Positions 21,963-29,906 of a DNA stretch of 29,906 nt are shown one piece after another (the stretch's first letter is position 1; every line of letters starts with the position of its first letter). The position numbers and the translations under genes were made by a program. The DNA comes from a virus (taxonomy: Duplodnaviria; Heunggongvirae; Uroviricota; Caudoviricetes). The notes beneath the pieces are model-generated. The model ran no database searches. It was not told the DNA's origin and was given only the letters and a program-made list of their open reading frames with translations. The stretch spans positions 1-29,906 of IMG/VR virus record IMGVR_UViG_2778261574_000001, one strand, 5' to 3'.

Positions 21963-24900
21963 TCAGAACGACCAGTTCACACCAGCTACCCCGTTCCACG
22001 GGGATTCCACACCGGCACCATGGCTATACCCCACCCCAAGATGCCCGCTTAACGTACTGCTGAATGAGGCTTTAATACCTGCCTGGTATATTCCACGTCT
22101 GCCCGACAAATCATTGACGAAATTACCGTCACTATTCACTTTCACCCGGTTATCATCGACAAATTCTTTGCGCACAGCCGCCTTCAGCCACGGCTCAACT
22201 TCCATACCGTTCCCCAGACGCATGTTGTAACTCAGCGTTGCACCCAGTTCACGATATAAACTGCGGGTATCGACTGATTTCGATTCCATGCCATTGGATA
22301 AATGATATTCAGGGTTATCAGCGGTGAACCCCCGTTAACGATGCATACGGCGTCAGGTTCCAGTTACCATCGGTAAATCGCATCCCGGTTTCAATGTGAC
22401 CGCCCAGCCCGTTGCTGCGATAACTGCCGTTGGCGGCTCCACCGCTGCCAACCGTGGAGTCGCGAGCTTCGGTACCTGCTAATACCAATAAATTATCGCC
22501 ATTTTCCAGCAACATATTGGTCGCTAAATTGCCGGAAATGGAAAAAGTGCCGTACTGGTGAGTACCGCTGATTTCAATACCGTTAGCCGTGCTCGTCTGG
22601 AGAGCGGCACCGCTGTTCTGGACGATATCTGTCGCTTTGCCATTATCGTTAACTGTCAGCGTACCGCCTTCATTGATCTTTGTTTTTATTGCCTCTCCGT
22701 TAGCTGAAACTGTTTGTATTCCGCCGTCGTTAATCGTTGTCTCATTCGCCACCCCCTCGACGATTTGTTCGCCGCCGGTGAGCGTCGTGCCTGTCGCAGT
22801 GGCTTTTGTTTTGACGATCTCCCGTCCGCCCGTATTGACCTGTGTTTTGTCAGAAGAGGTGTCTGACTCCATGGTTAACACGCCGCCATTTGCCAGCAGG
22901 ATATTGTTCGCCGCACCCTGCTCGATGCTGAACGCGACGCCATCCGCGCGTGTTCCTGTGACCCGCGTCGCCCTGGTGGTTGCAACCAAAGCGTCCTGGC
23001 TACTCTGCTGTATCCCCGTTGCGCTGCCTTTCTCCCGCACATCGAGTGTGCCGCCGTCATTAAGCACCGAGTTTTCAGCCAGACCGCCCTCATTAACTAC
23101 CTGTGAACACCCATTAATAATGGAACCTTCCGCTGTCCCGTTTGCCATAATTTGTTGTAGGCCAGAGACGATATCGGTATTGATTGCCTTACCATAATTC
23201 TGAACGGTTTGCGTGCCACCATTGATGTGTGTTTTCTCTGTTGACCCACCATCAACAATTTGTTCACCACTTTCGATATTTGCCTCAGTGGCTAATCCAT
23301 ATACCGTTTGCTTGCCACCTTTGATATTTGCTTTATCAGAAGTGGCACTGGCATATATTGTTTGGGTGCCAGCACTATTGAGTACAGTGCCAACATCTTT
23401 TCCATAAACATCCATTTTGCCGTTGGCATTAATAATCGTATCAACTGCCCGGGAACCAGTGACGACTGTTAATGAGCCAGCGTTTTCCAGCACTACATTT
23501 TTAGCTTCTGAATTCCTGATGTAGAAAGCATCACCATAACTGTTGATTCCTTCGATAAGGGTTCCGGAAGTTGTGGAAGCAATTAATGCGCCGCCGGATT
23601 GTTGCTCAACATGCTTAGCCTCACCACCGTCCTGAACCTCCAGAACGCCACCATTATTAAGTCTGGTGGTATCTGTTTTAGCCTCCTTCTGGACAATCAG
23701 CTTACCGCCAGCATCAACGGTAGTATTTTTCGCCGAGGTTTTAGCCACTACCGTCAGTTCGCCGGTATTTTCCAGCACAACATAATTAGCCTCCCCTCCG
23801 GTAATAGTGAAGTGAGAGAGCTTGTTGTATCCTTCAATATCAGTCCCTGCGCCCGTGTTGGCAACTAAAGCACTGCCCGTCTCCTGGTTAACCCCATGTG
23901 CAATACCACCGGTATAGACAATCAGCGAGCCTCCGGCGCTAATATTGCTGCCAGTTGCCGTACCATCTTTCTCAACAACCTGCCGGCTCCCGGAGGATAT
24001 AATTGTCGTGTCAGCTTTCCCGCCGCTCTTGATATTTTGCGTTCCGCCGTTGATATTGGTACCCGTGGCAATACCATGATTATTAATATTCTGTGTACCA
24101 CCATTGATTATGGTATTGGTCGCGTTTCCGGTAACATCCATTACCCCGCCGTTATCTATTCGGGTCGCATCAGCTTTAGCATTCGTTAAAACTGACATTG
24201 TTCCTTTATCTTTAATAATCGTCTTGTTTGCCGAACCATATGCGTTTATGTCTAAATGACCACCGTTTTCCAGCAACACATTGTCTGCCACGTGATTGCG
24301 GATGGAGAATGCACCTTCACTATTCGTACCGCTCACCGTCGTACCGTTAGTGTTTGTTTTTAAAATTGCACCATCGTGCTGGGTAACATTTGTTGCCGTA
24401 CCACCACTAACATCAAGCACGCCACCGGAATAAACTTCAATAACATCCGAGGAGCTGGTGTAATCAACAATTTGCGTACCACCAGAATAGATCTGAGTAT
24501 TTTTTGCCGTTGACTTATTATTCAGAGACTGAGTTCCACCTTCAATCGTCGTGTCCAGCGCATGGCTTTCATATACTCTTTGCTCACCGCCATTTTTAAT
24601 GGTGGTTGTTCCTACTGTGCTCTGTTCAACATACTGTCGTCCACCATTTATGATTGTGTTCGTTGCAATACTTCCTTGCGTGATGTCCTGATAACCGGAC
24701 TTATTTATCGTTGTACCATCAACATGCCCCTGAGTTGTTACTGTCTGCCCTCCACCATCAATGATGGTTCCATTCGCAGTCCCCCCACTTATGTGTGAAT
24801 TACCACCCTTAATTGTCGTTCCATTGCTGATACCACCTGTATAAACGTCCTGATTGCCACTGTCGATTATCGTACCGGTGGAAATGCCCCCGTCATGAAT

Positions 24901-25224
24901 TGTCTGTCTTCCTCCGTTAATGGTTGTATTATTAGCCTGCCCCACAAAATTGTTATGACTTCCTACATCTTGATATCCACCCGATTCAATAAGACTTCCA
25001 TTAGATACCCCGCCATGAACATTCTGCTGGCCATGGTTGATAATATGAGTGTTATTTGTTGTACCTCGTTCATCTACTCTTTGGCTGCCATCTACAGTCT
25101 CATCGTTTACCACACCAATAACATCAGGAGTGAAGGCCGTCATCCCAGGCGGGGCATATATCAAGGCAGATATCAATAAGGAAAGTACTGAGCGGCGACA
25201 ATAATGGGGACTGGTCCTGTTCAT
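21963..25224 (-). pseudogene. AIDA-I-type autotransporter adhesin, reading frame interrupted at a C5/G5 tract (two ORFs: 22318..25224 and 21963..22289)
   Basis: Signal peptide MNRTSPHYCRRSVLSLLISALIYAPPGMTA; long passenger of G/T/N-rich beta-helix repeats; C-terminal ORF ends in the barrel signature ...GVNWSF. Removing one base from the run at 22329-22333 joins the frames as ...TPYASLTG-FTADNPEYHLSNGMESKSVDTRSLYRELG.... Confidence 0.75.
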
Positions 25225-25630
25225 AAATTTCATCCTCTGAAAAGTGAATACTGAGTAGCGTTTAAGCGACCTTAGCTCTGCTGCAACATCAGCCCACAGG
25301 CACCAGACCAGGGGATTCATCCTGAAGAGACAGCGCAAGTGTATTGTGTTCACCGCTCATCAAAGACATCATGATGAAATGATGATATTCCACATAAGAA
25401 AGAAGCATTTTTTAAACGCAGTGCGCTGAAGTATGGTTGGATAAAAAAGTCAATCTATTCAGGGAATACGGGGGTATTCTTTTCTTTCGACAATCAGGCC
25501 GTCGGCAAAATAAAATGATTTACATAATCGTTTCTGATGAATATCTTCTGCTCACATAAAAATAACACAATAACTTTGAGATCGCAGATTCTTTTACTTT
25601 TACAGCATTCGTCCCCCCATTGTTGGGCAA

Positions 25631-25870
25631 ATATAGATTGGGCCAGAGCACGAAAGTTAATACCACGTTTGCACAGCTCCTCCAACAGCACGACAAGATG
25701 CCACATACTGCGCCCCAGTCGGTTCGGTTTACAGACTACCCGTGCGTCCACCGCCGATAATGTCCTGAGCAGTTTTTTCAGTCCGGACCTCCTGCCACGG
25801 TTTTACGTTGAAGAGGTAACCCTGAGCACGCAGTTCATCAGTCAGGCGTGGTGTACCGTAACCCTATTAT
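25631..25870 (-). pseudogene. Remnant of a serine-recombinase (Pin/Hin/Gin-type DNA invertase) gene
   Basis: Minus-strand reading ...RGRRSGLKKLLRTLSAVDARVVCKPNRLGRSMWHLVVLLEELCKRGINFRALAQSI... is co-linear with the invertase core (...RPGLKRALKRL..GDTLVVWKLDRLGRSMKHL...GINF.SLT.SI); no intact N- or C-terminus. Confidence 0.6.
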
Positions 25871-26136
25871 TGATGGGTAAGATCAAAAAAACTTTCAGGC
25901 AGCTAAGGAAAGTTGAACCAGACATTAGAATAAATATTTCAACCAATTACAGCACCAATTCAGACACCGCCAGCTCAACAAATAAATCAAGGGGTTACGT
26001 GAAAGCGTAGCCCCTTTTTCTTTGGTAGTGGCAGCAAAATGGTTGTAGTGTAAAAAATAATCCCGTTTAATCAATCAATAATACATATTGTTTCAATCTA
26101 CGTTATTATCTCTTTGTAAAAATAGCCATTTATTAA

Positions 26137-26880
26137 TCATTGAAAACTGCTTTTAGAACTTGATACAACGGGACTAGTCACAACAGGACTATTCTCAACG
26201 GGATCATCCTCAGAGGAACTATCATCAAAGTCATCATCCATAAATAAAATATCATCGAATGGTGCCACGCCCGTGATGAGTTTTATTTTATTATTACGAT
26301 CAGTCAAGACTCCACTTAAACCGTTTTCGCTCACAGGTTTTAATGATTTTTCATTACTCTTGTTGTAAGCAGGCGCATTAAAAATACACGGAGTATCAAG
26401 ATCAAACAATGACGTTCCCCAGTTCACATATTGAATATCATAGTTACTGAAGTTCTGTCCAGAAAAGAAGCATCCCTTAAAATCCAATCCACCTAAATTA
26501 TATAAACCATCCTCTTCTTTTTGGAGAGTAATGTTAATTTTGGCTATCTCCCGGACATCATCGCCATTTTTATATTTGAATACCGTTTCAAGATTTTCCC
26601 CACACAGTTTGACTTCTGGAAATAATTTGAAATCAAAGCCTATATTATTATGTATCAACGTAGATGAACAAAAGATGGAGAAAGCTTGCAGTGCTGAATT
26701 ATAGCTTTCGATTTTATCCTGAGGCTGCGCTCTTGGTAAAAACTCATAGCAACATTCATAAAAATTAAGTAGAAACTCTGAAGACCTTCCATTTTTATCA
26801 AATAATATCCCCTTGAACTCATTCACAAACGCATCTTTTTTTTCTTGAATATCTATGGGGTGTTCCTTTGACTCTGACAA
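26137..26880 (-). CDS. Hypothetical protein, AT-rich (likely 3' continuation of the upstream ORF; no ATG start)
   Basis: 247-aa frame opens right after the upstream stop and begins at TTG with no convincing SD; first in-frame ATG is near the C-terminus; acidic/Ser-rich tail DDDFDDSSSEDDPVENSPVVTSPVVSSSKSSFQ. Confidence 0.5.
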   Translation of the reverse strand: MSESKEHPIDIQEKKDAFVNEFKGILFDKNGRSSEFLLNFYECCYEFLPRAQPQDKIESYNSALQAFSIFCSSTLIHNNIGFDFKLFPEVKLCGENLETVFKYKNGDDVREIAKINITLQKEEDGLYNLGGLDFKGCFFSGQNFSNYDIQYVNWGTSLFDLDTPCIFNAPAYNKSNEKSLKPVSENGLSGVLTDRNNKIKLITGVAPFDDILFMDDDFDDSSSEDDPVENSPVVTSPVVSSSKSSFQ

Positions 26881-26894
26881 AGATGAAATCTCAT

Positions 26895-27509
26895 CTATTT
26901 TTTTTCATATGAATTACGTGATTCCATACAGACATTTGGCGGCGTTTCTAAAATAACACTACGCGTACTACTTGGCTTAAGTAAACCAACATGAAAATCA
27001 CTTTTTCTTATATTATCGAAAAGGTTCTGTTCATTTCTTTTAGCGCATTCAAAAAACTGATCGTCATTATTTTTATTCGATAATTTTTTAGTTTCAGAAA
27101 ACACATTTTCATTGTTTTCCAGCTTTAGTTTAATGAGAAGATTTTCCCAGACCTGCTTGCTTAAACATATTACGTCAGGCTCACCAGAACTAACTAACTC
27201 GTGATTATTATTAAAGTGTACGTTGAATACCTTTAAGTTATTTTCACCAACTTCATATTTAATACGTTTTAATTGTTCTCCAACTCCCATAATGACAAAG
27301 GCGTTGCCTTCATGATATATACATTCAGACATCATTTTTTGTAAAGTTTCAAGAGCACCGCGATACGTCCCTGAGGCAGCTTTCTTACAAATTAAATTTA
27401 TAATACTATAAGCTAGTAGCTCCATGGATTCAGAAGATTTTCTTTCATTACAATTTCCACTATCTATAAATGAGCTAGTGTTAAATTCGTTGTTTTTACT
27501 AACTAACAT
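26895..27509 (-). CDS. Hypothetical protein, AT-rich (possible 5' part of a single gene split at a T8/A8 tract)
   Basis: 204 aa; ATG at 27507-27509 with SD GAGGAA; N/K/E-rich, no family recognised. Confidence 0.55.
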   Translation of the reverse strand: MLVSKNNEFNTSSFIDSGNCNERKSSESMELLAYSIINLICKKAASGTYRGALETLQKMMSECIYHEGNAFVIMGVGEQLKRIKYEVGENNLKVFNVHFNNNHELVSSGEPDVICLSKQVWENLLIKLKLENNENVFSETKKLSNKNNDDQFFECAKRNEQNLFDNIRKSDFHVGLLKPSSTRSVILETPPNVCMESRNSYEKK

Positions 27510-28264
27510 TGTCTATTCCTCAGTTAATGTCTTCATGGCTATTTTTAACGTTATTACTGTTTGTCACTATAAAAAATCGCTCATTTGAGACATTTGCTGA
27601 CATTAACTGTTTCACATGCTACGCATGGAACTTTTAATTAAATAAGCACAAGAATGTTAAATTTAATAAACAAAAGGTTATTTCTCTGTATGATAAAAAT
27701 CACCCGTTATGACTTATTAGTGAAATTCGTTTTTCGAGTGTTAGAAATTTATATCTAAATAGCGTTGATTAATGAGCAAAGCCAGACTCCTGTAACGCTC
27801 ACAAGACTCATCTGCCTGCGACGGGTATTCTGGTCAGTAGTAGATGTTTAAGGCGTGGCAGAGACATTTCATCCTTACGCTACGGCATTGGCCCGCATAC
27901 AAATCGTGGTTGTGACACTCACTTATCATCAGTGAGCGAACAGAGAATAGTTCAGTGATTTGAGTAATTAACCTGATTAAATGAAGAGGCATGATAAATG
28001 ATAATACTCTGGCTTTATCGTTAATTACTTAATTCCACATGTAAGCAATTTGCCCGCTTGGCATAGCAGGCATTTTTTCCAGGTACTTTTGAATGAGTAC
28101 TGATGGATAAATACATTGCAGTGGCGTGCCACGTACCAAAACACCAGCCCTCATTCGAAACCACCCACCGCACTTCTTCCTTGAAATGGCGTTAGTCATG
28201 AAATATAGACCGCCATCGAGTACCCCTTGTACCCTTAACTCTTCCTGATACGTAAATAATGATT

Positions 28265-28340
28265 TGGTGGCCCTTGCTGGACTTGAACCAGCGACCAAGC
28301 GATTATGAGTCGCCTGCTCTAACCACTGAGCTAAAGGGCC
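28265..28340 (-). tRNA. ileY: tRNA-Ile2 (anticodon CAU, lysidine-modified type), 76 nt with encoded CCA
   Basis: Minus strand GGCCCTTTAGCTCAGTGGTTAGAGCAGGCGACTCATAATCGCTTGGTCGCTGGTTCAAGTCCAGCAAGGGCCACCA folds into a cloverleaf (7-bp acceptor, D, anticodon loop CUCAUAA, T arm); near-identical to E. coli ileX/ileY as I recall. Anticodon alone cannot exclude tRNA-Met; the symbol is by synteny. Confidence 0.85.
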
Positions 28341-28899: not shown

Positions 28900-29862
28900 A
28901 TGTTTTCTATAAAACCAGGACCCAGAAATTTACCTATCGACAACCCCACATTGTTATCATGGAACATTACTGACGGGGATCTAAATTCCAAATTAAATAC
29001 ATTAGAATATCTAAACTGTATAACAAATATTATTAATTCTTGTGGAGTTTACCCTCAAGGATTAAAAGACAGAGAAATTATATCAACTTTTCACGCAGAA
29101 AAAGTTATTAATGATCTGTTAAAAAACGATTATAAAATTTCCCTTTCTCCAGATACAACTTATCGAGAGTTGAATAAAGCAGCACAGCGTAGCATTACAG
29201 CGCCAGACAGGATAGGAGAAGGAAAATCATGGGTTTATCAACGAGATACAATGATTGAAAGAGGTGATAACAGCGGTGTTCATCAGTATGGTCCTGCTGA
29301 ACATTTCACCCACATTATATCTGACAAACCGTCCCCAAAAGATGAGTATATTGCATATGCTATTAACATTCCTGACTATGAGCTGGCAGCCGATGTATAT
29401 AATATTAACGTGACGTCACCTTCCGAACAGCAAGAAACATTTAAAATACTAATCAATCCAGAACATCTACGGCAAACACTTGAGCGTAAATCTCTTACTG
29501 CTGTTCAGAAATCACAATGTGAAATCATCACCCCTAAAAAACCTGGCGAAGCGATTCTTCATGCTTTTAATGCCACCTACCAGCAAATCAGGGAAAATAT
29601 GTCTGAGTTTGCACGTTGCCATTATGGGTATATACAAATCCCTCCAGTGACAACTTTCCGCGCCGACGGACCAGAAACTCCCGAAGAAGAAAAGGGTTAC
29701 TGGTTTCATGCTTATCAACCCGAAGATCTTTGTACCATCCATAATCCAATGGGAGATTTGCAGGATTTTATTGCATTGGTTAAAGATGCTAAAAAATTTG
29801 GTATCGATATCATTCCTGATTATACCTTTAACTTTATGGGAATTGATCTTACCCAGCAATAG
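28900..29862 (+). CDS. Hypothetical protein whose C-terminal ~100 aa resemble the start of a GH13 (alpha-amylase-like) catalytic domain; probably truncated
   Basis: 320 aa; ...YGYIQIPPVTT...KGYWFHAYQPEDLCTIHNPMGDLQDFIALVKDAKKFGIDIIPDYTFNFMG then stop, resembling the first beta-strands of amylase-family enzymes but ending where the domain should continue. Confidence 0.4.
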   Translation: MFSIKPGPRNLPIDNPTLLSWNITDGDLNSKLNTLEYLNCITNIINSCGVYPQGLKDREIISTFHAEKVINDLLKNDYKISLSPDTTYRELNKAAQRSITAPDRIGEGKSWVYQRDTMIERGDNSGVHQYGPAEHFTHIISDKPSPKDEYIAYAINIPDYELAADVYNINVTSPSEQQETFKILINPEHLRQTLERKSLTAVQKSQCEIITPKKPGEAILHAFNATYQQIRENMSEFARCHYGYIQIPPVTTFRADGPETPEEEKGYWFHAYQPEDLCTIHNPMGDLQDFIALVKDAKKFGIDIIPDYTFNFMGIDLTQQ

Positions 29863-29906
29863 TGGACACGCGGCTAAGTGAGTAAACTCTCAGTCAGAGG
29901 TGACTC

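Follow-up and report, generated by a model that had tools for sequence, protein, structure and literature searches.

An unstable A tract in a very probable frameshifted allele of ypjCB, a gene limited to Escherichia coli and Shigella

Positions 26137 to 27509 on the minus strand of the viral record IMGVR_UViG_2778261574_000001 (29,906 nucleotides, the whole of which is referred to here as the window) very probably constitute an allele of ypjCB that a frameshift has inactivated; ypjCB occurs as a single chromosomal gene limited to Escherichia coli and Shigella. We found nothing that contradicts the reading of this allele as a pseudogene, and the item is a known one: the label that RefSeq gives to 100%-identical DNA at the corresponding coordinates is 'ypjCB, YpjCB family protein, frameshifted', and ypjC of K-12 is given as a pseudogene in two publications (PMC6928379, PMC5811629). 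The 1.7 kb around the gene are matched in 3141 of 5426 complete E. coli genomes (58%), at least 22 of them at 100% identity among the matches listed. The initial annotation of this DNA, which described a gene split at a homopolymer, had named a confident assignment to a known degraded pseudogene as something that would speak against it; the RefSeq and K-12 entries take away its novelty but leave its correctness untouched. The parts of the locus are these (ORF, open reading frame; pLDDT, predicted local distance difference test score; G+C, guanine plus cytosine).

26137..27509, minus strand: ypjCB pseudogene, first start codon through final stop (RefSeq label on 100%-identical DNA; NF050179; DUF5507 and DUF5508)
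27516..27521, minus strand: Shine-Dalgarno-like GAGGAA, 6 nucleotides 5' of the ATG at 27509 (read from the sequence)
26895..27509, minus strand: ORF1, 204 codons plus TAG, N-terminal domain and part of the linker (ORF list; DUF5507; NF050179 1-203)
26898..26905, minus strand: A8 tract, the frameshift site, with AAAACAAAA there in intact alleles (alignment and tract counts)
26137..26904, minus strand: downstream open frame, 255 codons plus stop, C-terminal domain and tail (DUF5508; identity to the A9 allele)
26836..26843, minus strand: second A8 run, GAA AAA AAA GAT, in frame in the window (sequence)
26398..26502, minus strand: seven pentapeptide-like pentads, residues 337-371 of the fused protein (YNLGG LDFKG CFFSG QNFSN YDIQY VNWGT SLFDL)
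26140..26262, minus strand: acidic, Ser-rich C-terminal tail (PFDDILFMDDDFDDSSSEDDP...), predicted disordered (translation; pLDDT below 40)
25989..26016, no strand assigned: G+C-rich hairpin about 120 nucleotides past the ypjCB stop (consensus scan only: terminator-like site on the plus strand)

ORF1 closes with a TAG at 26895-26897, directly past the eight A's (T8 on the plus strand, 26898-26905), just as had been described, and the gene does not read as an uninterrupted ORF, the remainder after codon 204 lying in the -1 frame. This downstream frame overlaps the A8 run, is open from 26904 to 26140 and stops at 26137-26139. Its first mechanical start is a TTG at 26880, which gives the 247 amino acids reported earlier, and it has no convincing ribosome-binding site; the earlier statement that it contains no ATG holds except near the C-terminus. 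Adding one A to the run joins the two frames into a single ORF of 457 amino acids, as computed on the window sequence (about 455 had been foreseen), and the A9 allele of strain C11 encodes exactly that protein, WP_025653551. Across 5000 shuffles of the region, the length of the longest open frame was 59 codons at the median, 108 at the 99th percentile and 170 at most; chance, at this composition, comes nowhere near frames of 255 and 204 codons.

The view that one gene was broken by a frameshift at the A tract is borne out by the protein families, as both halves fall on a single NCBIfam model, NF050179 (Ecoli_YpjCB): ORF1 aligns with its positions 1-203 (377 bits) and the downstream frame, ORF2, with positions 227-465 (545 bits), each scoring, as the half of a split gene, under the cut-off of 650 bits set for the whole protein. 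ORF1 also corresponds to Pfam DUF5507 (PF17612, E 8e-95) and ORF2 to DUF5508 (PF17621, E 4e-167), and the fused A9 protein goes by the name YpjCB in its source records. O157:H7 and other strains have intact single ORFs, whose lengths are 449, 457, 472, 474 and 484 amino acids; WP_000906744 is one such protein, from O157:H7. Intact proteins are numerous in the protein collection (547 contigs carry P0033, for example, and 510 carry P0046). The comparison with intact homologues that had been proposed thus yielded single ORFs of 449-484 amino acids, common in E. coli and Shigella, and such widespread single ORFs contradict homologues that would always be separate genes. The ypjC/ypjB pseudogene of K-12 shares with the window its locus, its neighbours (recombinase remnant, ypjA and ileY) and 95.8% DNA identity; unlike the window, it is stopped at codon 161 and has retained AAAACAAAA at the junction, whereas the window allele has codon 161 intact, misses the C at codon 203 and has a different mosaic 5' end.

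At the junction all intact short-linker alleles read GAA AAC AAA ATA GAT (Glu-Asn-Lys-Ile-Asp), with GAA AAC AAA ATA as codons 202-205. The window allele is without the C, which creates both the A8 run and an in-frame TAG after codon 204. By this alignment, the homopolymer is a derived feature of the lineage of the window allele, and the notion that A9 was the intact state of the population, implicit in the earlier repair of the frame by one A, has to be replaced by GAA AAC AAA ATA, that is AAAACAAAA. Tract states were counted in complete genomes by exact 64- to 67-mers spanning the tract.

AAAACAAAA: 1512 genomes
A8 (exact 65-mer): 283 genomes
A7: 16 genomes
A9: 1 genome (strain C11)
A10: 0 genomes

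The allele of strain C11 equals the window over all 1373 nucleotides save for its ninth A, and its protein carries Lys203 where intact alleles have Asn. The A9 protein is present on 32 contigs, as against 847 for the exact 204-residue fragment, and since the A9 allele was found on at least 24 contigs beside several different ssrA islands it is genuine and not the product of one faulty assembly. Each of three A7 alleles has its nearest relative in a separate A8 background, which argues for at least three independent contractions from A8 to A7, and A8 and A9 are both present on two flank haplotypes. The second A8 run (26836-26843), 62 nucleotides 3' of the first, is A7 in genomes L014 and L063. 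A 2-nucleotide insertion was observed in L007 in a T run near codon 14. The aligned alleles show that the A tract is now a mutational hotspot, with A7, A8 and A9 on near-identical backgrounds, and homopolymer indels appear as a general failure mode of this AT-rich gene.

The sequence of events would then begin with the loss of the C at codon 203, which would create A8 and the TAG and silence the gene to a 204-residue fragment; the tract would thereafter vary in length, A9 restoring a 457-residue protein with Lys in place of Asn203. Normal decoding of the window allele is expected to give only the N-terminal fragment of 204 amino acids, because the 253 C-terminal codons are in the -1 frame with no usable start. 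The loss appears recent, since the downstream frame shows no further damage and is equal to that of the A9 allele. Two considerations weigh against this simple course. A8 could have arisen either by direct deletion of the C or by a C-to-A change (giving A9) followed by contraction, two steps being required either way; and recombination, rather than repeated slippage, could account for part of the pattern of A8 and A9 on two haplotypes.

Inactivation of ypjCB is not limited to this junction. Six of 15 alleles fetched across the identity range are intact and nine are disrupted, the latter by seven distinct lesions: the loss of C from codon 203, stop codons at 41, 119, 161 and 235, a 2-nucleotide insertion in the T run at about codon 14, and A8 to A7 in the second run. 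Among intact alleles, pairwise ratios of non-synonymous to synonymous substitution (dN/dS; Nei-Gojobori method, recombination ignored) ranged from 0.57 to 1.02 for the whole gene, from 0.50 to 1.74 for the N-terminal domain and from 0.34 to 0.73 for the C-terminal domain, and were often above 1 in the linker. Such whole-gene values are far above those typical of E. coli core genes. We infer from these alleles that ypjCB is weakly constrained and has been lost repeatedly across the species.

The alleles differ in other respects as well. Just 3' of the frameshift site, L008 and L010-L013 carry an extra linker segment of about 35 amino acids (KVSPVTKNSQQVKGHYGDKFKEMQ...), L015 has a tandem duplication of PPNVCMEPRNSYENK, and the length of the tail differs between alleles. 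The first 140 or so nucleotides of the gene in the window (27370-27509, minus strand) show about 20 differences from other A8 alleles (L002, L059, L060) and resemble the long-linker alleles L010 and L013, the rest being identical; this pattern points to intragenic recombination, that is, to mosaic alleles. The O157:H7 copy is intact and that of an O121 strain is broken. O121 as a serogroup counts as type III-positive and Shiga-toxin-producing. From O157:H7 and one O121 strain, intact alleles and type III-positive pathotypes do not seem to go together in any simple way.

Could the A8 allele still yield useful amounts of full-length protein, in the manner of a leaky 'pseudo-pseudogene', through addition of an A by RNA polymerase or a -1 slip of the ribosome? 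The site has the right form: read in the zero frame as GA-A AAA AAA TAG it is an X XXY YYZ heptamer (A AAA AAA) that abuts the TAG, a -1 slip enters exactly the downstream frame, and either such a slip or one extra A in the mRNA would give the fused protein. The downstream frame, moreover, is free of secondary lesions. Runs of eight to nine A's can restore broken ORFs at the mRNA level, and in one A8 case roughly one-tenth of the product was full-length (Baranov et al. 2005, PMC1088944). The pseudo-pseudogenes described there resemble the window allele in having a frameshift in an A run, an ORF restored by one more A in the mRNA, homologues with a single ORF, and a tract whose length varies by strain. 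Unlike them, ypjCB in the window has a run of eight and not nine A's, the tract is missing from most alleles, and other lesions also kill the gene; with the tract so distributed and other lesions at hand, conservation does not suggest that slippage is used.

Further evidence goes in the same direction. The AAAACAAAA state, in one continuous frame, is carried by 1512 genomes against 283 with A8, so the tract is unconserved; out-of-frame A7 (16) outnumbers in-frame A9 (1) among complete genomes; and the alleles inactivated by stop codons are beyond rescue by slippage. No stimulatory RNA structure was found in the 96 nucleotides around the site (fold z-score 0.31, with only a 6-bp hairpin), nor did inspection of the sequence upstream of the slip site reveal a Shine-Dalgarno-like stimulator. 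A small fraction of full-length product could be made by transcriptional slippage or a -1 slip, and nothing suggests that the site is programmed for recoding as those of dnaX or IS3 transposases are. Because the site is unconserved and lacks a stimulatory structure, and because A7 outnumbers A9, we consider useful leaky expression unlikely, and a selected switch more unlikely still.

Such a switch would make ypjCB an emergent phase-variable (contingency) locus, in which slippage toggles the protein between ON (A9) and OFF (A8 or A7) and selection keeps the switch. The recurrence of tract-length polymorphism among close relatives, with A7, A8 and A9 on near-identical alleles, lends it some substance, as do the contractions, at least three of them independent, the two flank haplotypes shared by A8 and A9, and the occurrence of A9 in several genomic contexts. 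The two states are nevertheless far from being both maintained: A9 was found in one complete genome and out-of-frame tracts in 299, so that of the 300 complete genomes with the tract 1 is ON (by contigs, 32 against 847). The tract is also confined to one allele lineage, and its changes are biased to contraction, as in neutral decay. A run of eight or nine A's is short compared with typical contingency tracts.

The most ambitious proposal, which we hold to be a shade less probable than the switch taken by itself, is that YpjCB is a protein of recent origin, specific to E. coli, with a part in conflict or in interaction with the host: it could, for instance, be a secreted factor akin to effectors, carrying a short beta-helix of pentapeptides and an acidic tail of eukaryotic type, and would be under diversifying selection, with the A tract as an ON/OFF switch that is possibly leaky. 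The structure prediction called for at the outset was run and assigned no fold: AlphaFold2 with a 12-sequence alignment gave the full-length protein a mean pLDDT of 36.9, which is unusable. The C-terminal half, with 38 sequences, reached 50.3, only residues 85-168 being modelled at moderate confidence; the model contains a three-stranded sheet and beta bridges of period 5 (pLDDT 60-83), those in the seven pentads at pLDDT 70-83. The C-terminal tail has a pLDDT below 40; its acidic and Ser-rich character (26140..26262), noticed earlier, was found again and is predicted to go with disorder. With low confidence, YpjCB could be pictured as a soluble two-domain protein with an alpha/beta N-terminal domain, a disordered and variable linker, a C-terminal domain with a pentapeptide-like turn, and an acidic tail.

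The earlier hint of pentapeptide-like repeats fared less well than the tail, being reduced to the periodicity of the seven pentads, with no Pfam model and no fold search behind it. The observed pentad score was reached by 5 of 20000 shuffles, with a score that was defined after viewing the sequence, and the Pfam pentapeptide models (PF00805 and relatives) gave no match at E<=10 to the 97-residue segment or the full-length proteins and none at E<=0.1 to the 38 members. YpjCB recalls pentapeptide-repeat proteins, type III effectors included, in its AT-rich gene by a tRNA, its Ser/Asn-rich N-terminus without a Sec signal and its seven consecutive pentads with a hydrophobic centre and Asp or Asn before it. 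YpjCB departs from them in having no Pfam pentapeptide match, no structural match to a beta-helix and a repeat stretch sufficient for no more than some 1.75 turns. Pentapeptide repeats are found in the type III effectors PipB2 and the EspX family, which serve here as a lead only; strains without a working type III system, such as K-12, also carry ypjCB. The first 30 residues of the protein include seven Ser and five Asn and contain no hydrophobic core.

A role in host, phage or competitor interactions, of a secreted-effector-like kind, may nonetheless be put forward as a low-confidence guess, one that would fit the fast evolution and frequent loss of the gene. Several results tell against it. 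Fold searches with the models returned nothing significant, a profile against PDB sequences gave only a chance match (E 0.64), PADLOC had no match for ypjCB, and searches of Pfam and PHROGs found no family of known function. Deletion of ypjC in K-12 led to slightly more colonisation of biofilms by a pathogen, with no effect of constitutive expression or overexpression (PMC3646849). In addition, homology searches (protein collection, 1.84 billion representatives and PDB profile) revealed no homology to a known effector. Matches to CTD4 of ABC-3C (best E 1e-4) and to FliS (best E 3e-3) were obtained for 3 of the 38 members each, below cut-off, and were treated as spurious; the one such member seen with coordinates is a long-linker allele.

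As to origin, both the low G+C content and the tRNA-adjacent position on which the initial annotation had based horizontal acquisition were confirmed: ypjCB has 33.6% G+C, against 49.4% for the whole window, and a tRNA-Ile lies at 28265-28340. Hha binds the ypjC/ileY region in K-12 (PMC2408971), which together with the low G+C fits xenogeneic silencing. The gene was probably acquired horizontally and may be silenced by H-NS/Hha.

That the two halves are real genes, each expressed by itself, in line with the former K-12 annotation of ypjC (N-terminal protein) and ypjB (C-terminal protein), is very improbable. Two Pfam families are kept for them, DUF5507 (160 positions) and DUF5508 (263 positions), both halves are called as proteins in older records, and the K-12 ypjC deletion has its mild phenotype (PMC3646849). 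The Pfam boundaries, however, are those of the K-12 split: the stop at codon 161 compares with the 160 positions of DUF5507, and DUF5508 starts at Met195 of the intact protein. The break points vary by strain (codons 14, 41, 119, 161, 203 and 235), intact single ORFs are widespread, and the downstream frame in the window has neither an ATG near its beginning nor a convincing ribosome-binding site from which to be translated by itself. It appears that DUF5507 and DUF5508 represent the pieces of a single gene, and the boundary between them does not look structural.

Least probable of all is a sequencing or assembly error at the homopolymer, where one A restores the frame and where length errors are common in long-read assemblies, given that the same A8 65-mer is present in 283 complete genomes from many laboratories and the exact 204-residue product on 847 contigs from NCBI, JGI/IMG, ENA and Logan.

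A frameshifted ypjCB is the reading we retain. The distribution of the gene is narrow. A profile search of 1.84 billion representative proteins recovered one full-length cluster plus fragments, and in this exhaustive HMMER search no distant relatives of YpjCB were found. Among 185,579 species genomes, ypjCB was present only in E. coli/Shigella and on two short contigs, L018 (a metagenome-assembled genome of Planococcaceae, 2.8 kb) and L021 (Arthrobacter agilis, 291 nucleotides), whose YpjCB is 98-99% identical to the E. coli protein and which most likely got into the two assemblies as contaminating E. coli DNA. The gene is in none of the GenBank phage records, which were searched, and the plasmid matches consist of three chromosome-sized records (4.8-4.9 Mb) and a partial fragment on a 245-kb record. 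PHROGs contains only its own family of no known role, phrog_30093. Of 26 IMG/VR loci that were fetched, 19 have the start of the gene no more than 13 bases from where the provirus contig ends, a pattern that we read as an artefact of prophage boundaries at the ssrA island and that would explain phrog_30093.

The surroundings comprise, in order, a P2-like prophage, the ypjA autotransporter remnant, a recombinase fragment, ypjCB, ileY and an amylase-like pseudogene, and in every annotated locus fetched with enough flank ypjCB lies between the recombinase remnant/ypjA and ileY. The prophage and the ypjA remnant here belong to the ssrA-linked island, which borders ypjCB on the side away from ileY. 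By comparison with a genome 98% identical to the window, about positions 1-22000 of the window are the P2-like prophage (capsid, terminase, replication endonuclease, CI/integrase), and 22000-25400 hold a disrupted ypjA/EhaD autotransporter, now in two parts, a pseudogene truncated at its C-terminus and an ORF of its own for the beta-barrel. A recombinase/invertase fragment flanks ypjCB at about 25632-25799 (minus strand), as does an alpha-amylase-family gene at about 28900-29906 (plus strand), which in many strains has a frameshift or a stop; both are pseudogenes. Decayed genes thus cluster along the whole interval from ssrA to ileY. In the hairpin at 25989-26016 the stem is followed by GATTTATTT on the minus strand, and on our reading of the sequence it may also terminate minus-strand transcription of ypjCB. 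From Rfam, the tRNA was the only match.

28265..28340, minus strand: tRNA-Ile2 (ileY, anticodon CAT), upstream of ypjCB (ARAGORN; Rfam tRNA, 73.8 bits; RefSeq 'tRNA-Ile')

ARAGORN labels this gene tRNA-Met (CAT) and RefSeq tRNA-Ile; it corresponds to ileY, the lysidine-modified tRNA-Ile2. The name given to it in the initial annotation is therefore the right one, ileY being known to be mis-called Met, as has been noted for strain Crooks (PMC3032704).

Little that is new follows from the identification itself, since RefSeq already names the pseudogene and flags it. What is added here is the true intact state of the junction, the instability of the tract, an exact in-frame A9 allele, the many independent inactivations, and the absence of relatives or of an assignable fold. 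For the family, DUF5507 and DUF5508 would be better handled as one. The locus offers a clean natural case in which the loss of a single base makes a homopolymer, and the homopolymer in turn a site of recurrent indels, with A9, A8 and A7 as the series. And ypjCB, as a true species-restricted orphan with fast evolution and many independent inactivations, is a fair test case for the role of such genes, provided that an intact allele is expressed.

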